A DNA stretch of 64,000 bases from Salinibacterium sp. (GTDB lineage Bacteria; Actinomycetota; Actinomycetes; Actinomycetales; Microbacteriaceae). The stretch is taken from contig SCSV01000081.1 of NCBI GenBank assembly GCA_004297555.1, positions 826 to 64,825 on the forward strand, given 5' to 3'. A program made the translations under genes and the position numbers. Below, in pieces: positions 13,441-52,294 of the stretch (the first letter of the stretch is position 1; every line of letters starts with the position of its first letter). Under the pieces are notes generated by a model. The model was not told the DNA's origin. It worked only from the letters and a program-made list of their open reading frames with translations, and ran no database searches.

Positions 13441-13724
13441 GCGGGCGGAGCCGCCTTGATTTTCGGTTCGGCAGCTACGGCCGTCTCAGGAACCGCGTTT
13501 CCGGTGGCGTCACGCGCCACGGGCGCCTCTGAAAGATGCGCTCCGAGCTGCTTTTCCGTGACCACCTGACCCTTTTTGAACTGAAAAATAGCGTATTTGG
13601 AGCCGATTTTCTGCTTTCCGTTGCTGTCGAGGATGGGTTTACCCGCCGCGTCCTCGAGAGGCAGTTTTCGACTCCCCTGGACCATAAAGTCATCCAGGAG
13701 CCTATATTGCGCCTCTGATGCCAT
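13437..13724 (-). CDS. Hypothetical protein, first gene of the late operon
   Basis: AGGAGG RBS; coupled to terS. Confidence 0.6.
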   Translation of the reverse strand: MASEAQYRLLDDFMVQGSRKLPLEDAAGKPILDSNGKQKIGSKYAIFQFKKGQVVTEKQLGAHLSEAPVARDATGNAVPETAVAAEPKIKAAPPA

Positions 13725-13746
13725 GATGATGGCCTCCTGAGGAGCA

Positions 13747-13776
13747 AGCCTATAGACGAAATCAATTTGATGTCAA
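13747..13776 (-). promoter_or_regulatory. Sigma70-type promoter for the packaging/head operon
   Basis: TTGACA (13771-13776), 18 bp, TAGGCT (13747-13752); followed by an SD. Confidence 0.55.
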
Positions 13777-25057: not shown

Positions 25058-25843
25058 CTAATCTCTCGTCTCTTCGCTGGCCCGCACGGTCGCTCGACGC
25101 CCGACGATGAGTCGCTCGCGCGGACCCGGTGTGCGCATCGCCGCATGCGTTGCGTGCGTCACGACGCCATCGATCACGACGTGTCCAGCCGGTAGCGTCT
25201 CGCTCCGTCCGCCCCCGCTTACGAGCGCGACGTCACCCTGACGCTCGATAATAGCGTTCTCGCGTCCGCGCCAAATCCAAGAGACCGCCTCTCGTACCGT
25301 CACACACTTGACCGACACGGCATGCGCGAACCAAGTACCGGTCTCGTTGCGTCCGATCAGGTACCGTGTCGCCACGCTCGACGGGCCCCACTTGCACGAG
25401 CGTGCGTACCGCCTCGTCCGTCTCACCTCGACGAGCGCTAGCCCAGCTCTCCCCTTGTCAAGGTACGGTGACAGCACACTCACCGTCGGGCCAACGTAGT
25501 CCAGACCGTAGGTCGTGAGATAGTCGCCTCGTGTCGACCCGTGCTCGTCGTAGAGCATCCCGGCGTGCGTGGTCATGGCGCGCGCCTTGTCGCGTCGGCG
25601 TTGATCGCTCCAATACGTCCCTACCCGCGGGTCGCGCTCGGGCCTCGGCCCGAGAAACGTGCGCATGAAGCGCACGCGGTCGAGCGCGGACGCGCGCTGG
25701 TACGCCGCCTCGAGACGGGCCCTGCGCTCGACGTTCCCACGGCGCCCGCGCTCGGCCTCGACGCGTCGAGCGAGCGGGACGAGCGAGCGCACCGCAAGGC
25801 CTTGCGCGCGAGCCAGGGCGGAGGACGTCAGGGCCGCGCTCAC
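25058..25843 (-). CDS. Early protein with RQGD...H...H C-terminal motif
   Basis: IERQGDVALV...GHVV...THATH; GTGA-coupled start. Confidence 0.55.
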   Translation of the reverse strand: MSAALTSSALARAQGLAVRSLVPLARRVEAERGRRGNVERRARLEAAYQRASALDRVRFMRTFLGPRPERDPRVGTYWSDQRRRDKARAMTTHAGMLYDEHGSTRGDYLTTYGLDYVGPTVSVLSPYLDKGRAGLALVEVRRTRRYARSCKWGPSSVATRYLIGRNETGTWFAHAVSVKCVTVREAVSWIWRGRENAIIERQGDVALVSGGGRSETLPAGHVVIDGVVTHATHAAMRTPGPRERLIVGRRATVRASEETRD

Positions 25844-26025
25844 TTGCTCACCTCCGTCACCCTGATCTCGCTCTCCGCGTATCCGCAAAAAGCGATAACC
25901 CCGCGGCGCTCGCGGTCCGCCTCTTCGCGCGTGGCGAATTGGTCGGAGCCAAGAGCAAGCCAGCGGGGAGATCCGTCAGGCATCTTCTCCAGAGTTTCGA
26001 GCTCGTACATGTTCGCGTTCTCCAT
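25840..26025 (-). CDS. Early hypothetical protein (first gene after promoter)
   Basis: ATG at 26025 sits 5 nt after the -10 box; alternative ATG at 26010. Confidence 0.55.
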   Translation of the reverse strand: MENANMYELETLEKMPDGSPRWLALGSDQFATREEADRERRGVIAFCGYAESEIRVTEVSK

Positions 26026-26030
26026 ACCAC

Positions 26031-26080
26031 AATCTAGGGCCCGCTTCGGCACGTGTCAAGAGGTTTTCTCTACTATTTCA
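26031..26080 (-). promoter_or_regulatory. Early promoter (family member)
   Basis: TGAAATAGTAGAGAAAACCTC-TTGACA (26054-26059), 17 bp, TAGATT (26031-26036). Confidence 0.8.
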
Positions 26081-26111
26081 CGCTCTCGCGCGGTCGAAAG
26101 AGCGAGTGACT

Positions 26112-26254
26112 GACAAAAATTGTCTGCCAAATCGGCGCGGGCTGTCTCCCTCCAACTATTTGGACCTCCAAGAGCCAAAACCGACAATTTTTGTCACTTT
26201 TCCGACAATTTTTGTCGCTTCGACCTACAATTTTTGTCAGTGTGACATCTTGTC
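26112..26254. repeat. Array of GACA-N5-TGTC sites (iteron/operator-like)
   Basis: GACAAAAATTGTC 26112; GACAATTTTTGTC 26183 and 26204; TACAATTTTTGTC 26226; variant GACATCTTGTC 26244. Confidence 0.85.
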
Positions 26255-26904
26255 TCACTTACACTTCTTTGCCTCAAAAGTGCGACACCATGCCCAAATC
26301 AAAGAAGTCCAAATCGAAACCCAAAGAAGTGGGCCTTTCGTCGCACTCAGACCTCTCGCAGAGCCCACTTCGAGTCCAATGTTTCCCGCGAAGTTTCGCC
26401 AAAAAACGCCTTTTTCCGAGAATTTCCCGTAAACTCGACCCCGACTTACACCGGTATCGTCCGAGCGTGCGTGTCCTCCGTCCCATTTTCGACCACTCAA
26501 TACTTTCCACTTTACCCTCCCCGAGACCTCGTTTGGCGCGTCCTCTATACGCGCAAAACCGTTCGCCTTTTTGCAAATATTTCACTCTTGCATTCTCCGC
26601 CCATTCAAATATGGGCTTCCTCAGCGACTCATCTCCTACCATATATACGTTCCCGCCCTAATCAAGTTAGTAAACTACTCTCGTCATCTCCCCAGTATCC
26701 ATGCGGGTCTAGCCTCAAAGAGTTTTCCTAGAGGCTAAAATTTTAGCATTTCCCCGCCTCCGTCACTTTAGCTCTTATCATACTCTATGACCTAGACTTA
26801 CCCTCTCTCAGCCCCGGAAACTACGTCCTCAAATTCTGCCAGAAGAAGACGCGTCCAAACCGTCTAACCCCGCTCAGTTCCACGTCCAATCTAGCCCAGT
26901 TTCG

Positions 26905-26941
26905 CGAAAACCTTGACACGCGCCGAGCCTAACCCTATCTT
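26905..26941 (+). promoter_or_regulatory. Early promoter (family member)
   Basis: GAAAACC-TTGACA (26913-26918), 17 bp, TATCTT (26936-26941); ATG 6 nt later. Confidence 0.75.
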
Positions 26942-26947
26942 AGGCTC

Positions 26948-27598
26948 ATGCTTATCTACATCATTCAAGATCAAGGTCCACGGCTCCATGAGACCGACGA
27001 AACCGCACTTTTGCAGGCATGGCGTGAGACGCTCGGAGCAAAAATGGTGACGCTTCGGGAGGCCGTGCACCATCCCGCCTTGACCCCGTACTTCGGGCAG
27101 GCTCCTAACCTACGCAGTTTAGGGCACTTATTCCGACGCCTCTCGCTCCGTCACCTGATTTACCGTCACGGGCGCTCGAAGCCTATCCTGTGGAGCGCCG
27201 TTCCACTCTTCGAGTCGACCACGGCTAGCCTCGACCTTATCGCGTCGATCCTAGCCGTCCTAGGGCCCGTCCCGCGCTCTACCAGGTCGCTCCAAGGCGA
27301 GCCTAGCCTCTCCGCCCTATCCCGGCTCTCCACGCGCTCCGTGGGGAAGCTACTGGCCCGCCTAGCGTCCGACCCACAGTCAGGCATCATGCGGGCGCCC
27401 GTCAAGCGCTCCAACGTCATCCTCTGGTCGGCCTCACCCTACACTCGCCCGGTGCCGGTCCACTCTCCCGATCCAGCCTCCGCGCTCACCCTCGCTCCCG
27501 TCGACGTAGCGTCCGCCACGCGAGACGGCGATGACGCGGGCGCCACGCGTGAGGACGATGAGGCTATCGGCACGTCCGCCCTCGACTTCGACTTCTAA
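26948..27598 (+). CDS. Tandem winged-helix-like protein resembling the primase C-terminal domain; acidic DFDF tail
   Basis: Internal duplication RSLGHLFRRL/RSVGKLLARL and RSKPILWSAVP/RSNVILWSASP. Confidence 0.6.
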   Translation: MLIYIIQDQGPRLHETDETALLQAWRETLGAKMVTLREAVHHPALTPYFGQAPNLRSLGHLFRRLSLRHLIYRHGRSKPILWSAVPLFESTTASLDLIASILAVLGPVPRSTRSLQGEPSLSALSRLSTRSVGKLLARLASDPQSGIMRAPVKRSNVILWSASPYTRPVPVHSPDPASALTLAPVDVASATRDGDDAGATREDDEAIGTSALDFDF

Positions 27599-27847
27599 CG
27601 CCTCGCGCGTCCGCGCGTCTCGCGCCCGACGACCGGTGACGAGCACGAACCGCGGGAGCCATCCCGCCGACGTCGACACTCTCCCCGTGATCGCCGTCGC
27701 CCCATGCCATGGCTCGACCCGCACGCGCCGACCGCTCTCATACGCGGCCCGGACCGTCTCGTGAGCCTCCAGGAGCTCCGAGGGGTCGAACCGATGGCCC
27801 CAAACCATCGGGCCCCATCTCAGGCGACGAGCGAGACGCGTGCTCAA
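27434..27847 (-). CDS. Conserved phage hypothetical protein
   Basis: RFDPSEL...YESGRRVRV...GRVSTSAGWLPRFVLV pattern; coupled to upstream ORF. Confidence 0.55.
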   Translation of the reverse strand: MSTRLARRLRWGPMVWGHRFDPSELLEAHETVRAAYESGRRVRVEPWHGATAITGRVSTSAGWLPRFVLVTGRRARDARTREALEVEVEGGRADSLIVLTRGARVIAVSRGGRYVDGSEGERGGWIGRVDRHRASVG

Positions 27848-28116
27848 AGCGTCACACTGACACGGTCAAGGCCTTCGACACGCGTCCAGCGGACAAGCCT
27901 ATCGGTCCACGCGATGCGCACCTCCAGCGCTCCGTGACGCGTGCGTGCTCCGGTGACGCGTATAGGCCTGTCCATTGTCGACATGGTGTATAGAATGTGC
28001 CGACGAAGCGTGACGCTCCTGCCGTCCGCCAGCGCCCGATTGATCGCGCGCGCCGTCACTTCGTCACTTCCCAGCAGACGATCAGGCCTTGACGTGTAGT
28101 TGCGTAACCTTCGCAA
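27844..28116 (-). CDS. Early hypothetical protein
   Basis: Coupled ORF; start uncertain. Confidence 0.45.
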   Translation of the reverse strand: MRRLRNYTSRPDRLLGSDEVTARAINRALADGRSVTLRRHILYTMSTMDRPIRVTGARTRHGALEVRIAWTDRLVRWTRVEGLDRVSVTL

Positions 28117-28159
28117 GGTACGTCAAACTCGGCAATATGACAGACTGAGCATGCTAACC

Positions 28160-28444
28160 TCACGAGTCGACCTCATCAGCGACCTGTTTCTCAGTAAACA
28201 TCCAGCTTCCCCAGCCTTTAATTGTATTGGGCTCGCGAACGCCGACATACTCAACGTATTCCGCTAGAGCGCTCAGCTCCACGCATTGGCGCTCGTCATC
28301 CTGTTCTCCGCCGTCGCGCGTATACTCGACCTCACTTAGCAAGTCTTCGGAGATAGCGCCCGACGACATGAAAGAGTACATCTCGCTCGCTTGCCCGTTA
28401 TGCCACCAAGAGGCGATTGTATAGGCGCACGCGTGCGAGATCAC
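28160..28444 (-). CDS. Conserved phage hypothetical protein
   Basis: ISHACAYTIASWWHNGQASEMYSFMSSGAI; GTGA-coupled start. Confidence 0.6.
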   Translation of the reverse strand: MISHACAYTIASWWHNGQASEMYSFMSSGAISEDLLSEVEYTRDGGEQDDERQCVELSALAEYVEYVGVREPNTIKGWGSWMFTEKQVADEVDS

Positions 28445-28977
28445 TTCGGCACCATCACGAGTACGTCGGATGGGAAACAGTCCTCGACCGAGTCGTACTC
28501 TAGAGCATGCCACGGATTACCGTCCTCGTCGAGTCGATAGACTTTCCAAATTCGCCACGCGTAGCCGGGCCCGTCTCGGCCATCCTCAAGACACTCGCAC
28601 GTGTCGTCGCCGTGGAGACACTCGGGATATTCTCCGTTTGGGGTTTCGGCCGGTGGAGCCCCTAGACTAACAGTGATACCGTATTCTTCGTCGCCGTCGG
28701 GTCCGTCGAGATTATCGAGAACCCACTTGCGGACCCTAGGGTAGAACGCTACAAGCGCCGCAAGCTGCGCGAGTCGCCATGGGTCGTCTGTCGTCACGAC
28801 ATAGTCGGGGTGGAGCGTGTCGACTCCATCGTTACCGTCGCCGACAGACACACCATACCGCGGCAATACGGCATCGTTCGAATCGCCCCCCGCTTCGTCG
28901 AGGTTCGTGACGCTCAGTCTGTTAAATCCTCGCGAGCGTAGCAACGAGCGCTCGCGATCTGCTTCGGTTTTCTTCAT
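28441..28977 (-). CDS. Early acidic hypothetical protein
   Basis: Coupled ORF; Asp/Glu-rich. Confidence 0.6.
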   Translation of the reverse strand: MKKTEADRERSLLRSRGFNRLSVTNLDEAGGDSNDAVLPRYGVSVGDGNDGVDTLHPDYVVTTDDPWRLAQLAALVAFYPRVRKWVLDNLDGPDGDEEYGITVSLGAPPAETPNGEYPECLHGDDTCECLEDGRDGPGYAWRIWKVYRLDEDGNPWHALEYDSVEDCFPSDVLVMVPK

Positions 28978-29189
28978 GATTTCACCCTTTTGGCCTTCGG
29001 AACACGGACGAGTCTGCGTACTTCGCGGACCAGGACCATCGGCTCATCGTGGCACGTAAAAATCGCGTCCGAATCTTTCCAGAACGAATAATCTCCACGT
29101 GTCGCACTCGCGCGACTTTGACAGCTATGGCAAAATAGGAAAGCGCCGTTAGTCGGTTCCGGGAGATCCGGCCATGTGATACCGCTCAC
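28974..29189 (-). CDS. Small Zn-ribbon protein
   Basis: FCHSC...TCHDEPMVLV. Confidence 0.6.
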   Translation of the reverse strand: MSGITWPDLPEPTNGAFLFCHSCQSRASATRGDYSFWKDSDAIFTCHDEPMVLVREVRRLVRVPKAKRVKS

Positions 29190-29347
29190 GCCGCACGCTC
29201 CTTTCCGAGTTTCTTCATGATCTCCCTGACAAGTCCGCTCTCGCTCCGAAACGACCAGAGTGCCAAGCTAGGGCAGTGATACACGGTACCGTCTGACATG
29301 ATCTCATGTCCTCGGAGCGTGCCGACGACGTGGACGCGCGTGCTCAC
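29186..29347 (-). CDS. Small early hypothetical protein
   Basis: GTGA-coupled start. Confidence 0.45.
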   Translation of the reverse strand: MSTRVHVVGTLRGHEIMSDGTVYHCPSLALWSFRSESGLVREIMKKLGKERAA

Positions 29348-29490
29348 TTGACGGCTCCACTTCGGCCCGTATAGGCTCCGATGCGTGTCTCCGGGAGACT
29401 CTCCGCCTTGCTCCACTTCGTGACGCGCCCGATAATCGGGCGCCCGAACTTGCGCGGATTGTAGTGTGTGGTTTCGAGGGTGATTCGCAT
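29344..29490 (-). CDS. Small early hypothetical protein (48 aa, MRITLETTHYNPRKFGRP...)
   Basis: Read by hand; GGAGG RBS. Confidence 0.5.
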   Translation of the reverse strand: MRITLETTHYNPRKFGRPIIGRVTKWSKAESLPETRIGAYTGRSGAVK

Positions 29491-29541
29491 TTCGTGTTCC
29501 TCCAGATTAGGCGCAGCTTACCGTGCGCCTATCGCGCAGTC

Positions 29542-29739
29542 TCACGCCCGAAAATACCACTCTTCTTTGACCGCGAATCTTCCGACGTCCTCGCCGTCGC
29601 TGGTAAAAATTGTCTTGAAGAACGAGACGTCTTCTCCACTCTCGATCCTGTCGGCCGCGAGGCGAAGCGCGCGGACGAATTCGGCGGTCATGTCGGCCCC
29701 GTCCTCTAGGGCCATTTTTAGCAAGAGAGTCTTTTTCAT
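29542..29739 (-). CDS. Conserved small phage protein
   Basis: EFVRALRLAADRIESG...IFTSDGEDVGRF. Confidence 0.6.
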   Translation of the reverse strand: MKKTLLLKMALEDGADMTAEFVRALRLAADRIESGEDVSFFKTIFTSDGEDVGRFAVKEEWYFRA

Positions 29740-29740
29740 C

Positions 29741-29896
29741 TCACGCCACTTTCCGCGCCATCACGAACGGCGCTACGTATTCGACGTGCTCGATAAGATC
29801 CTGAGTCGCCTCGAACAGTTCCGAGAGTGCGAGCGCTCGTTCCGCGATTCCCTGAGAGACTTCCAGGAGCTCTTGCGTGTTCTGGTCGATCTTCAT
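29741..29896 (-). CDS. Small early protein (51 aa, MKIDQNTQELLEVSQ...)
   Basis: Read by hand; ATG 7 nt after the -10 box. Confidence 0.55.
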   Translation of the reverse strand: MKIDQNTQELLEVSQGIAERALALSELFEATQDLIEHVEYVAPFVMARKVA

Positions 29897-29903
29897 ACTC
29901 TCA

Positions 29904-29952
29904 ATCATAAGCCTGCCTCACGGTCTGTCAAGAGGTTTTTTCTACTATTTCA
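29904..29952 (-). promoter_or_regulatory. Early promoter (family member)
   Basis: TGAAATAGTAGAAAAAACCTC-TTGACA (29926-29931), 16 bp, TATGAT (29904-29909). Confidence 0.8.
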
Positions 29953-30274
29953 GGTATTTTTTAACGGTACGCTCGAAGGCCTGTGCCGTCCGATTCTCTC
30001 CGCACCATCGGAGCCTCTCAGCATACGCAGCCACATGCTCAGGGCACTCTCCGCAACGCGCCCTAGCGGTCTTCTTAATCCAGGCTGACACAGTCTCCCG
30101 TGCGTACCTGGTAGCTTCAGCCGTCCAGGAAGTGTCGAGCAAGGCGTGGCACTCGTCGCACGTGTCCGGACAATCTCCGCTCTCATCCCATGAGTACAAT
30201 GCCATCATTGTCTTGTCGTCGCCGTGGTCGGGACAGTAGAGCGTGGAGTCTCCCGCGTATGCGACGATTCTCAC
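29945..30274 (-). CDS. Early Zn-binding hypothetical protein
   Basis: LYCPDH...CPDTCDECHALL. Confidence 0.6.
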   Translation of the reverse strand: MRIVAYAGDSTLYCPDHGDDKTMMALYSWDESGDCPDTCDECHALLDTSWTAEATRYARETVSAWIKKTARARCGECPEHVAAYAERLRWCGENRTAQAFERTVKKYLK

Positions 30275-30474
30275 TCTTCACACTCGCACTGTTCCCGAGT
30301 CTGTTCCGGATACGATTCTGACCCCGCGTTGACGTATCCGCTCGTCAAGTAGTTCGCTTCGATCTTACTCACTTGCTTTTGCCTCCACAAAGAATATGTG
30401 TCGTGTCCTGGGTCAAAAGCTACACACTTCAGAAGTTTTCTTAAAATAGTTTCGGCTCAGAGAATGACCAGCTC

Positions 30475-30524
30475 GAAATAGTTGAGAAAACCCCTTGACA
30501 GGTGGAGCGGACGGGCCCTAGATT
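30475..30524 (+). promoter_or_regulatory. Early promoter (family member)
   Basis: GAAATAGTTGAGAAAACCCC-TTGACA (30495-30500), 18 bp, TAGATT (30519-30524); ATG 6 nt later. Confidence 0.8.
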
Positions 30525-30530
30525 CTTAAT

Positions 30531-30929
30531 ATGAGCGAGCGAGACACCAAGCTTGAATTGATCGACGATGTTGACGGGATGACGTATCGTGACGTGCTCG
30601 TGGATTTATGCCTGTCTCGTGCACGCGTCTTGACAAGCGCGGGCCGAAGCTCCATATTGCTAGAGCGTGTCGAGCTCCGGCCCGACGCGTGGTCGACCCG
30701 GAGCTCGCCCCCCACCCCGGGGGCCAGCTCACGGGCGCGCGCGAAACCGCGCGGCAGGACCCGGCCTGGGGGCGCCCTGAAAAGCGCGCGGCAGGACCCG
30801 GCCAAGGGGAGTTTTAAAAACCGCGCGGCAGGACCCGGTATAAAGGCTTTTCAAAAAGTGCGCGGCAGGACCCAGGGAAAACCTCTTGACAAACCTGTGG
30901 CGCCGGCCTATGTTCGAGTAGATGAATGA
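30531..30929 (+). CDS. Hypothetical protein; C-terminal half runs through the repeat array
   Basis: Plausible N-terminus after the promoter; low-complexity C-terminus. Confidence 0.4.
   Translation: MSERDTKLELIDDVDGMTYRDVLVDLCLSRARVLTSAGRSSILLERVELRPDAWSTRSSPPTPGASSRARAKPRGRTRPGGALKSARQDPAKGSFKNRAAGPGIKAFQKVRGRTQGKPLDKPVAPAYVRVDE
30749..30873. repeat. Four direct repeats GCGCGGCAGGACCC(GG), 37-bp period
   Basis: Copies start at 30749, 30786, 30823 and 30860, each preceded by an A-tract. Confidence 0.95.
30877..30914 (+). promoter_or_regulatory. Early promoter (family member)
   Basis: GAAAACCTC-TTGACA (30886-30891), 17 bp, TATGTT (30909-30914); ATG 7 nt later. Confidence 0.8.
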
Positions 30930-31266
30930 AACTCTGACCGGCCTCGCTCGCCCTTGGGGCAAACGTCGCGCCCTCGCGCGCCAGCTCAGCGGACCACCAC
31001 ACAATCTCACGCAGGAGCAGATCGCGGAACAGCTTGGCGTAACGCGCCAGCGTGTCGGGCAACTCCTAAAGGTAAAGCAGCAGCGCGCAGGAAGGCCCAG
31101 GACGCTGCGCACGCAACACAATCAGGTCTGCGGCAAGAAGATGTCGCCGAAGGTTGTTGCTGCTGTAAGACGCTTCTCTGGCGAGAAGGAAATCTCTCAC
31201 CTGGCCGCTCTCGAATACCTTGCGTCGGTCGGTGCTGCCAGTGTCTATCCAGAGGCAGGCACGTGA
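30922..31266 (+). CDS. HTH DNA-binding protein (sigma-70 region 4-like HTH)
   Basis: LTQEQIAEQLGVTRQRVGQLLK. Confidence 0.75.
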   Translation: MNETLTGLARPWGKRRALARQLSGPPHNLTQEQIAEQLGVTRQRVGQLLKVKQQRAGRPRTLRTQHNQVCGKKMSPKVVAAVRRFSGEKEISHLAALEYLASVGAASVYPEAGT

Positions 31267-31696: not shown

Positions 31697-32094
31697 CGAG
31701 CGTCTGGTGGATTGAGGACGGCGCGTACAGTAACTACGCCGTGCTAGGCGTCTTCTCGTCAGAGCAGAACGCACACACTGCGTTGCAGGAACTGCGCAGC
31801 AAAACAGCTGACATCGTCGAGGTAACGCTCGATGGTGGTATCGACATGCTGAAACAGGGTTTGCATATTTTCGTCGTCACAATGTGTCGCGACGGCAGTA
31901 TTGAGAGTCTCCTGCAGCCACACACATTCAACGTAGATGATGATGATGTGAAGCCGCACCTGTACAAGGACGCGCTGAGCGAAGGGTTCCTAATGCACAT
32001 CAACGTGTGGGCGAAGTCAGAGAAGCACGCCATCAAGGTAGCGAACGAGCACAGAACAATGCTCGTCGCCAGCGGAAAGTGGCCAGGCGCGTGA
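31693..32094 (+). CDS. Conserved phage protein (DUF7336-like N-terminus)
   Basis: VWWIEDGAYSNYAVLGVFSSEQNA. Confidence 0.6.
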   Translation: MTSVWWIEDGAYSNYAVLGVFSSEQNAHTALQELRSKTADIVEVTLDGGIDMLKQGLHIFVVTMCRDGSIESLLQPHTFNVDDDDVKPHLYKDALSEGFLMHINVWAKSEKHAIKVANEHRTMLVASGKWPGA

Positions 32095-32456
32095 AGAAAA
32101 AGCATGCCACTAGAGGCGCCACTTATTTAGGTAGCATTTGCCGGAGATGCGGCGCTGGTGTTCGGTATGTCAGTACTGGCAGGTGCGTCGGCTGCATGAA
32201 ATTGTGGGTTACTAAGTCGTTCTTGGTATCGACGTTACGTGCCCTAATGCGTGGGAAGCCATGTCATATTTGTCAACTTCCGATGACGCATCCATGCGCC
32301 GACCACGATTCAAGATTTAGTGATGTCCGTGGTTGGCTTTGTCATAAGTGTAATCGTGGCCTTGGACAATTTAACGATGACCAACGTCTAGTGCAGCTTG
32401 CCGCCAACTATTTGTTGATGCATCGGACCACTCACGCTTTCCGGGAATCAGCATGA
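32091..32456 (+). CDS. Endonuclease VII-type His-Me finger nuclease
   Basis: CHIC...CADHDS..SDVRGWLCHKCNRGLGQFNDD. Confidence 0.8.
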   Translation: MKKKHATRGATYLGSICRRCGAGVRYVSTGRCVGCMKLWVTKSFLVSTLRALMRGKPCHICQLPMTHPCADHDSRFSDVRGWLCHKCNRGLGQFNDDQRLVQLAANYLLMHRTTHAFRESA

Positions 32457-51345: not shown

Positions 51346-51846
51346 TCAAGATGCCGCTCGTAAGGTTTCGAGTGGTCGATCGCTTTCGTCGTCCGGGAGC
51401 GCGATGAGCTGCATCGTACCCACCTCGACAACCCATCCACGTGTGAGACCAACAAGATCGATCTTGATCTTGGCCTGGTCGCCGAGGTTGGTGTCATACA
51501 GAATGGCCTCGACGCGATCGGGAGTGATCGTTTCCCACTCGGAGAATCGGAGCCAGCGACCGTCACGGTGGACGGAGCGAACGCGGTACGAGAAGCTGAC
51601 GTCGCTACCATCGATGAGCCCTGTGACCCTCGGTCCAGAGTCCGCAAGGTCCTCGATCCTGAGCGTCGGGTCCGCAAGATTCTCTCGCAGGACTGGAGCC
51701 AGGATCGACGCTTCGAGCAGGCTGAAGCATCGGCCGCTTCCGTCCAGCATTCGCGAGACCGTGGCCTCTGACAGCCCCAGAAGAACACCGAGCTCACGTT
51801 TCTTTAGGTTCGCTCGCTCACAAAGGCCTCGGATCTTTTCGTTCAT
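51346..51846 (-). CDS. XRE-family HTH transcriptional regulator
   Basis: LKKRELGVLLGLSEATVSRMLDG. Confidence 0.75.
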   Translation of the reverse strand: MNEKIRGLCERANLKKRELGVLLGLSEATVSRMLDGSGRCFSLLEASILAPVLRENLADPTLRIEDLADSGPRVTGLIDGSDVSFSYRVRSVHRDGRWLRFSEWETITPDRVEAILYDTNLGDQAKIKIDLVGLTRGWVVEVGTMQLIALPDDESDRPLETLRAAS

Positions 51847-51914: not shown

Positions 51915-52259
51915 TTACGCAGGAGTGTTCGAAATTGGGACGGCAGCCAGACGCCGCGCCGTAAACTCGGCCACCCAGTCGTCATTCTGCTTTGAGACCT
52001 CGCGGCAGCGCGCGATCGCGATGGCCTGACGCCGCTGGCATGCCTCGCGAAGCGCCTCGACCATGCCGATGACTATGAATTTATTCTCAGGAGCCTGTAG
52101 GGCAAAGGCGGCGATCTGATTGGCTACAGGCCTGGCCAGCGCGTCCATGCGTTGAAACTCGGCCTCAACCGATTCAAGGTCCGTGAGTGTGGGGCCAGAG
52201 AGGATCTCTGAGACGGTGTTTTCGACGGTTTTCGTGAGGAAATGGAGCGGTTCGTTCAT
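51915..52259 (-). CDS. Hypothetical helical protein
   Basis: ATG 6 nt after the predicted -10 box. Confidence 0.55.
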   Translation of the reverse strand: MNEPLHFLTKTVENTVSEILSGPTLTDLESVEAEFQRMDALARPVANQIAAFALQAPENKFIVIGMVEALREACQRRQAIAIARCREVSKQNDDWVAEFTARRLAAVPISNTPA

Positions 52260-52265
52260 GCCGCC

Positions 52266-52294
52266 AACATGCGCCCGCAAGCCAGCGAAGTCAA
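52266..52294 (-). promoter_or_regulatory. Promoter, probably leaderless
   Basis: TTGACT (52289-52294), 17 bp, CATGTT (52266-52271). Confidence 0.5.

Follow-up and report, generated by a model that had tools for sequence, protein, structure and literature searches.

The window analysed here comprises 64 kb of the 65.9-kb contig SCSV01000081.1, which was assembled from one groundwater metagenome run. The gene content of the window is that of a tailed phage, with a GC content of about 60%. Six promoters, referred to here as P1 to P6, head all six of its non-structural transcription units. From P1 the reading direction is leftwards, over approximately 30 small genes as far as about 14 kb, and from P2 it is rightwards, over a single gene. 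The P3 unit extends leftwards as far as about 27.4 kb, the P4 and P5 units extend rightwards as far as 34.25 kb, and the P6 unit covers the replication genes leftwards down to 34.25 kb. At each of these promoters an ATG follows the -10 box so closely that the first gene of the unit is predicted to be translated from a leaderless mRNA, which would have a 5'-terminal AUG and no Shine-Dalgarno (SD) motif.

P1 (26031-26079, minus strand) consists of the 11-mer GAAATAGTAGA (26069-26079), AAAACC (26062-26067), the dinucleotide TC, the -35 box TTGACA (26054-26059), a 17-nt spacer and the -10 box TAGATT (26031-26036). P3 (29904-29951, minus strand) repeats this arrangement, with GAAATAGTAGA at 29941-29951, AAAACC at 29934-29939, TC, TTGACA at 29926-29931, a 16-nt spacer and TATGAT at 29904-29909. 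P4 (30475-30524, plus strand) has GAAATAGTTGA at 30475-30485, AAAACC at 30487-30492, CC, TTGACA at 30495-30500, an 18-nt spacer and TAGATT at 30519-30524, and it has GGGCCCTAGATT at the -10 box in common with P1. P5 (30878-30914, plus strand) begins with AAAACC (30878-30883), which is followed by TC, TTGACA (30886-30891), a 17-nt spacer and TATGTT (30909-30914). At P2 (26907-26941, plus strand), AAAACC abuts the -35 box TTGACA (26913-26918), and a 17-nt spacer leads to TATCTT (26936-26941). P6 (52266-52294, minus strand) is weaker, with TTGACT (52289-52294), a 17-nt spacer, CATGTT (52266-52271) and no A-tract. The gap between the -10 box and the ATG is 5, 6, 7, 6, 7 and 6 nt at P1 to P6, respectively. 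The promoter of the structural (late) operon (13722-13776, minus strand) has TTGACA (13771-13776), 18 nt, TAGGCT (13747-13752) and a leader of about 16 nt, in which AGGAGG (13733-13738) lies 8 nt ahead of the ATG at 13724.

Much of this layout had been proposed in an initial annotation of the DNA. The five promoters P1 to P5 are all present at the positions it gave, each with an ATG 5-7 nt past the -10 box and no space for an SD motif. The sixth, weaker promoter with a 6-nt gap is real (its ATG is at 52259 on the minus strand), and the late promoter does have an SD motif of the GGAGG type. The upstream element that it described as shared was found in part: AAAACC is present at P1 to P5, but GAAATAGTwGA is present at P1, P3 and P4 only, P2 is without the yC that follows AAAACC elsewhere, and P6 is without the A-tract.

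The promoter family is real and lies far beyond chance. The exact pattern TTGACA-N16-18-TAnnnT occurs six times on both strands of the window (128 kb), at P1 to P5 and at the structural-operon promoter, compared with a mean of 0.225 and a maximum of 2 in 200 dinucleotide-preserving shuffles. An ATG is located at +5 to +7 after the -10 box in five of these six exact sites, for which the per-site chance is 0.038 (binomial P = 4.5e-7). In addition, AAAACCNNTTGACA has four matches versus 0.12 expected. The -35 box, spacer and -10 box of P1 to P5 are those of housekeeping promoters of the sigma-70 or SigA type (exact TTGACA, 16-18 bp, TAnnnT), and P6 is a near-match. No convincing additional leaderless candidate emerged from a scan that admitted weak -35 boxes.

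Reading frames were compared with a codon log-odds score trained on 14 long open reading frames (ORFs) of the window, eight of which have PHROG matches. The ATG of the first gene opens the best-scoring of the six frames at P1 to P5, where the other frames on the same strand score approximately -0.4 to -0.6, and the ORF containing the P6 gene scores about +0.20 per codon. All six promoter-proximal ATGs are in the best frame, and five of the six frames have a positive score, the exception being P4. The in-frame ATGs of the initial annotation thus stand at all five of its promoters as the best frame, but the frame at P4 does so without a coding score.

The P1 first gene (25840-26025, minus strand) encodes 61 amino acids and has a codon score of +0.35, with about -0.55 in the other two frames, and a GC content at third codon positions (GC3) of 0.77. 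Its stop codon and the GTG with which the next gene starts overlap (GTGA), and this next start has a GGAGGT motif. The sole gene behind P2 (26948-27598, plus strand) encodes an orphan protein of 216 amino acids and scores +0.115 over the whole ORF. The P3 first gene (29741-29896, minus strand, 51 amino acids) scores +0.39, and its next in-frame start comes only after 44 codons. The P4 ORF (30531-30929, plus strand, 132 amino acids) scores -0.04, which is the best of six frames and not positive; four 37-nt tandem repeats, whose period is no multiple of three, make up its second half, and the region has no Rfam family and a fold z-score of -2.2. The P5 first gene (30922-31266, plus strand, 114 amino acids) scores +0.17, with the next in-frame start 73 codons on. 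The P6 first gene (51915-52259, minus strand, 114 amino acids) heads the unit of the replication module and is followed, in order, by genes for a helix-turn-helix protein (51346-51846), a Sak4-like protein, an AAA ATPase, a helicase and a primase-polymerase.

Searches of Pfam and PHROGs with the first-gene proteins, including the P1 product, were empty apart from a helix-turn-helix in the P5 protein (residues 27-50), which matched Pfam Sigma70_r4 with 24.4 bits (cut-off 24.1) and other helix-turn-helix families below their cut-offs. Among 5.8 billion proteins, the P5 protein matched itself alone, and the P2 protein had no homologue there or in phage records. A HMMER scan of 1.84 billion representatives with the P2 protein returned only its own fragment and a junk tandem-repeat translation, and a single-sequence structure model was uninformative (mean predicted local distance difference test score 40). 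An internal repeat in the P2 protein, which would put residues 17-32 inside a domain, was considered and dropped, as BLASTP gave no support for it.

The six starts also have features in common. The start codon is ATG in all six first genes, compared with 49 of the 70 SD-led starts of the window, and a pyrimidine is at -1 of the ATG in five of the six. The first 36 nt of the six predicted mRNAs have a mean folding energy of -3.2 kcal/mol, versus -7.8 kcal/mol for background 36-mers and -6.0 kcal/mol for other gene starts. P6 is the least structured of the six (-0.5 kcal/mol), and the 5' end of P2 is AT-rich and nearly unstructured (-1.8 kcal/mol). Downstream SD-led starts, which the initial annotation had set against its own proposal, have no candidate near P3, P4, P5 or P6; candidates are present at P1 (26010) and P2 (27044).

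The start sites, the leaderless translation, the function of the upstream element and the early timing in the following scheme are inferred from these sequence features. The host polymerase with its housekeeping sigma factor (sigma-70 or SigA type) would use the near-consensus promoters unaided once the phage DNA enters, and the A-tract, similar to that of an upstream (UP) element, would assist the polymerase. Transcription would begin at the ATG or at most two bases away, because the A of the ATG sits 6-8 nt past the last T of the -10 box, which is the usual start position. The resulting mRNA would have a 5'-terminal AUG and no SD motif, ribosomes would load on this AUG for the first cistron, and the later cistrons would be read via SD motifs or stop/start overlaps. 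We consider it likely that the housekeeping promoters, with their UP-like element, start transcripts at or near the ATG and so produce first cistrons with a 5' AUG and without an SD motif, in keeping with a habit of the host lineage. By promoter, the leaderless reading is well supported by the sequence at P3, P5 and P6, plausible at P1 and P2, and uncertain at P4.

Several observations weigh against leaderless first genes. First, the ATG begins at position 6 (P1) or 8 (P3, P5) after the -10 box, and at these three promoters the transcript could carry a one- or two-base leader or start inside the ATG. Secondly, it is doubtful from its sequence that the P4 ORF encodes a protein. Third, in-frame alternatives are available at P1, where an ATG at 26010 has GGAG 9 nt upstream, and at P2, where an ATG at 27044 has GGAG 5 nt upstream; codons 1-32 of the P2 gene are ambiguous, with a score of +0.079 and a GC3 of 0.50. 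Lastly, the only homologue detected for an early gene of the window, that of the second gene of the P1 unit (261 amino acids), is encoded on the viral contig IMGVR_UViG_3300038408_000025 (2963-3767), with 37% identity over 95 amino acids. There it is the first gene behind a promoter of the same type, but it lies 46 nt downstream and is preceded by AAGGA, and the ATG located 5 nt past the -10 box is out of frame with this real first gene and looks spurious. Since the first gene on this contig has a leader, promoter-ATG geometry alone is no proof. The contig was the only one found in a profile search of viral contigs with the second gene of the P1 unit, and genome and metagenome collections contained no related loci.

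The promoters could be real while translation at P1 and P2 starts at the downstream SD-led ATGs (26010 and 27044), the proximal ATG being unused or giving a minor longer isoform. The SD-like motifs before both of these ATGs are properly spaced, the beginning of the P2 gene is ambiguous as noted above, and the contig with the leadered homologue offers an example of an unused proximal ATG. However, the codon score of the P1 gene is slightly higher with its first five codons than without them (+0.35 versus +0.28), and the AT-rich, weakly structured 5' end of P2 is what is expected of an initiation region that is used. This explanation is also inapplicable to P3, P4, P5 and P6, where no such alternative exists, and the chance that all six ATGs would be in the coding frame is about (1/3)^6. 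Downstream initiation at P1 and P2 is thus unlikely, although there is something to be said for it.

The leaderless reading includes a role for the sequence upstream of the -35 box. Counted from that box, AAAA is located at -43 to -40 in P1, P3, P4 and P5, and the A-tract of P2 is displaced by 2 bp towards the -35 box, with its adenines at -41 to -38. The GAAATAGTwGA block is AT-rich and occupies -45 to -55 at P1, P3 and P4. These three promoters have 27-35 nt in common with 86-96% identity; for example, P1 and P3 are 96% identical over 27 nt. In the proximal UP subsite of rrnB P1, the critical adenines are at -41 to -43 (Estrem et al. 1998, 1999, summarised in PMC4390567). An A/T-rich sequence with an A-tract at about these positions was found at P1, P3, P4 and P5, in shifted form at P2, and was absent from P6. 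The A-tract at -43 to -40 and the AT-rich block upstream of it, within a genome of 60% GC, therefore resemble the UP element of rrnB P1. In contrast to a generic UP element, GAAATAGTwGA holds G and is far better conserved among P1, P3 and P4. From sequence and position, AAAACC is most likely the proximal part, and the 11-mer at P1, P3 and P4 the distal part, of a UP-like element that contacts the C-terminal domains of the polymerase alpha subunits.

The upstream block recurs a seventh time, in degenerate form (GAAACTATTTTAAGAAAACTTC), at about 30432-30453 on the minus strand, where no recognisable pair of -35 and -10 boxes accompanies it. Downstream of this copy are a small SD-led gene (GGAGG, GTG at 30372) and a 109-amino-acid gene at 29945-30274.

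Viral contigs in IMG/VR were scanned with the pattern AAAACCYCTTGACA-N16-18-TANNNT-N5-7-ATG. At least 120 contigs matched, versus 1-10 by chance according to a rough hand estimate. Among the matches listed, most were low-GC contigs with classic A/T-rich UP elements, for example TGAAAAAATTTCAA-AAAACCTC-TTGACA. Because the AAAACCyC-TTGACA junction is found in many IMG/VR contigs, it is a general trait of strong phage promoters and not a signature of the phage in the window.

A notable parallel in design among the matches listed is the 148.5-kb contig IMGVR_UViG_3300015608_001197, which has a GC content of about 60% and occurs commonly in runs from wastewater and activated sludge. It contains 23 exact TTGACA-N16-18-TAnnnT sites in 22 kb, of which 18 have an ATG 6-7 nt past the -10 box. 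Its promoter grammar, GAAA..TTTC..AAAACCCC-TTGACA-17-TAnnnT-6-ATG, matches that of the window, and its upstream consensus, agAAACc.C, is 87-91% A/T at about -42 to -40, a region in which the low-GC parallel contigs are also A-rich. It differs in that its units are mostly single small genes, and no protein similarity to the phage in the window was found. RNA-labelled wastewater runs that hold this contig gave flat, low-depth contigs with no informative ends, which are probably virion DNA.

In these parallels the proximal ATG can be compared with known domains. On the 148.5-kb contig, the ArdC-N domain of an ArdC-like antirestriction ORF begins at residue 5 and its tblastn homologues align from residue 3, and the Pfam domain of a PNKP-type phosphatase ORF begins at residue 6. 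On low-GC contigs with the same promoter-ATG geometry, a NAPRTase N-terminal domain begins at residue 9, an Rv2179c-like exoribonuclease match begins at residue 3, and a subtilase match begins at residue 33 of a sequence that opens with an apparent signal peptide. These alignments show that an ATG at such a distance behind a consensus promoter is often the true start codon of a phage gene.

The upstream block, mainly GAAATAGTwGA at P1, P3 and P4, might instead be the site of a sequence-specific regulator, either an early protein of the phage or a host factor. The identity among the three promoters exceeds the loose A/T preference of UP elements, and the 11-mer has conserved G residues. Helix-turn-helix proteins are also encoded by the first gene of the P5 unit and the second gene of the P6 unit, and operator-like repeat arrays flank P1 and P5. 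Nevertheless, the 11-mer is a direct, non-palindromic sequence that occurs once per promoter, and it is absent from P2, P5 and P6, which are otherwise alike in design. Its AT-richness and its position at -45 to -55 fit a distal UP subsite, and a similar GAAA..TTTC..AAAACC precedes TTGACA in unrelated phage contigs. The three copies are not significant by count alone (0.56 expected; three copies were reached in 2 of 100 shuffles), and the similarity of P1, P3 and P4 could stem from promoter duplication. A regulator site in place of a UP element is therefore improbable, although the block conserved at P1, P3 and P4 could serve as a regulator site as well as a UP-like element.

A broader proposal would hold that the phage splits its programme by translation initiation, that GAAATAGTwGA-AAAACC is a common control site for a phage regulator and more than a UP element, and that the many comparable promoter-ATG units of other environmental high-GC phages are a widespread, undescribed design of early-gene cassettes. 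We give this combination little credence. If it were true, transcription and translation of the early leader genes could be switched together.

The leaderless design is limited in scope. It concerns six first cistrons out of approximately 70 non-structural genes. With the public gene calls, GGAG, GAGG or AGGA was found 4-17 nt upstream of 29 of 51 genes (57%), versus 14% at control positions, and many of the remaining genes inside operons overlap the preceding stop codon. The statement in the initial annotation that most internal genes use GGAGG thus applies to these 29 genes in the form of GGAG, GAGG or AGGA, while many others have a stop/start overlap. Its broader claim, that first-wave proteins are systematically routed through leaderless initiation, did not hold, as only the first cistrons of the six units are concerned. 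As initiation at the downstream cistrons relies on SD motifs or stop/start overlaps, leaderless translation would not extend to the entire early proteome. All six non-structural units are without room for a leader and the structural unit has one, where the temporal classes are assigned from gene content.

This division between leaderless and SD-led units might be a translational timing device, in which the phage alters the host initiation machinery in the course of infection, favouring one class at first and the other afterwards, as a mirror image of the Thermus phage phiYS40. The split is clean, with six of six non-structural units on one side and one structural unit on the other, and phiYS40 provides a precedent through its changes in the levels of initiation factors IF2 and IF3 (PMC3594737). 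However, most of the early genes have SD motifs, as the late ones do, and a global switch would not separate the two classes. There is no recognisable gene for a translation factor or a ribosome-modifying protein in the parts of the window that were scanned, and a single late promoter is available for comparison. Such a device is very unlikely. A chance coincidence of promoter-like words and ATGs, finally, is scarcely conceivable given the shuffle and binomial results above and the fact that all sites are intergenic and head co-directional gene runs; all that speaks for it is the general caution that a consensus match does not prove function.

The public gene calls place the starts of two of the first genes too far upstream by a few codons, at GTG 26052 for the P1 gene (in the spacer, beside the -35 box) and at ATG 29908 for the P3 gene (in the -10 box). 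Should the promoters be real, both of the called starts would precede the transcript. The extra in-frame ATG of the P3 ORF at 29908, within its own -10 box, has GAGG 7 nt upstream, and the stop codon of the P4 ORF overlaps the ATG of the P5 gene (ATGAATGA). Because of these two arrangements, the P3 and P5 first genes could also be translated from read-through transcripts, which would give them two modes of expression.

The approximately 850 bp between the divergent promoters P1 and P2 (26060-26912) are without a coding frame and have a GC content of 45-55%. On the plus strand, C strongly outnumbers G, by 20-32 per 150 nt across most of the region. Its possible roles are those of an origin, a regulatory region or a long non-coding transcript. 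A 122-amino-acid ORF in the public gene calls (26274-26642, minus strand) lies within it and has no coding signal. Four copies of a 13-bp inverted-repeat site, GACAA-TTT-TTGTC (the GACAATTTTTGTC array), are located at 26111-26123 (in opposite orientation), 26183-26195, 26204-26216 and 26226-26238. The last three copies are 21-22 bp apart, and the array, which resembles an operator, precedes the P1 start by 90-210 bp. It is overlapped by a weak promoter-like site on the plus strand (CCGACA, 18 nt, TACAAT; 26202-26231).

Within the P4 ORF, four tandem 37-nt units with the core AAAAsCGCGCGGCAGGACCC (30733-30880) end right at the A-tract of P5; these repeats may be binding sites of a regulator or iterons. 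The ORF also contains a further promoter-like site (TTGACA, 17 nt, CATATT; 30630-30658), which is followed by a 16-bp hairpin in which 30671-30686 pairs with 30692-30707 (88% complementary). A GTG located 8 nt past the -10 box of this site opens an ORF of only 37 amino acids, without a coding signal.

Elsewhere in the window, the terminase, portal, a head-protease fusion and other structural genes are located at 4-13.7 kb on the minus strand, the replication module (Sak4-like protein, AAA ATPase, helicase and primase-polymerase) at 34-52 kb, and the tail genes, including one for a protein of 1980 amino acids, at 52-64 kb. An endonuclease VII-like gene (32007-32456; Pfam PF02945, E = 7e-12) is in the P5 unit and was not picked by the codon-score selection of ORFs. 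No tRNA gene and no known Rfam family was found anywhere in the window.

The proteins of the window point to differing host groups. The best matches of the terminase are in Streptomyces and Thermobifida phages, which are actinophages, with 36-40% identity. The primase-polymerase matches phages of Proteobacteria (Vibrio, Caulobacter, roseobacters and others) and one Actinoplanes phage, the portal-protease matches point to phages of Proteobacteria, and the AAA ATPase matches Pseudomonas and Salinibacter phages. A search with a 326-amino-acid ORF, presumed to encode the capsid protein, gave no match, and a terminase scan of genomes gave no prophage relative. Megablast of 26000-31000 against 50,697 phage records gave no match, a 26-nt promoter motif had no match in viral, genome or metagenome collections, and no close relative of the phage was present in the collections searched. 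The window sequence was found in a single public run, of groundwater DNA, and in no RNA run.

The design can be compared with several known systems. In phage lambda, the PRM transcript of cI, a regulatory gene, starts at the A of the AUG; lambda has one such gene, and leaderless mRNAs are rare in its host. The window differs in having a genome-wide design of six units. The middle and late promoters of phiYS40 reportedly have no -35 box. Most middle and late transcripts of that phage are leaderless, and IF2 goes up and IF3 goes down in infection (reviewed in PMC3594737). The likeness to the window is that a whole class of phage transcripts is without leaders, which in the window is predicted. 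The difference is that in the window the units predicted to be leaderless are the non-structural ones, which have complete -35 boxes, and that an SD motif leads the structural operon.

The Cluster O mycobacteriophages (Corndog and relatives) have the SigA-like promoters PL1, PR2 and PL2, which are predicted to yield leaderless mRNAs (PMC4351075). These are siphophages of a high-GC host with divergent housekeeping-type promoters in an AT-richer intergenic region, as in the window, and in both cases the leaderless mRNAs are sequence predictions. The window differs in that its design covers all six non-structural units and its promoters share a longer conserved block; no sequence relationship between its phage and Cluster O was detected. 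In the Pseudomonas phage phiKZ, differential RNA sequencing detected no leaderless transcript (PMC8244752).

Among cellular genes, leaderless ones are marked by a TANNNT located approximately 10 nt ahead of their start codon, and they account for about 19% of the genes of Actinobacteria and about 39% of those of Deinococcus-Thermus (PMC3160421, PMC12340547); an added -35 box strengthens such promoters in Deinococcus (PMC12340547). The window resembles the leaderless genes of these lineages (PMC3160421, PMC4633059, PMC12340547) in its TAnnnT 5-7 nt before the ATG, its lack of an SD motif and its high GC content. It differs in that TTGACA is perfect or nearly so at every site and an A-tract accompanies most of them, which makes them appear from sequence to be unusually strong, complete promoters. 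By analogy, the design most likely mirrors the norm of the host lineage and is not a special stress strategy. This is the simpler reading because TAnnnT before the start codon is the standard leaderless signature and because the same design was found in unrelated viral contigs. The suggestion in the initial annotation that leaderless initiation suits slow-growing or stressed hosts is neither supported nor needed. The comparison suggests, from few examples, that phages follow the leaderless habits of their hosts.

Units of this kind are already on record from Actinobacteria, from Deinococcus-Thermus and from some phages of both, and no new question is opened here. What is distinctive is the coverage of six of six non-structural units, the clean contrast with the SD-led structural operon and the well-conserved block at P1, P3 and P4. 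If confirmed, the window would provide six strong 5'-AUG promoters beside an SD-led control in one genome, which would be useful for studies of leaderless initiation, and it would provide compact expression parts for high-GC bacteria. In the calling and annotation of phage genes, start codons located directly behind -10 boxes should be accepted. In addition, the design could narrow the search for the host of this phage to lineages rich in leaderless genes.

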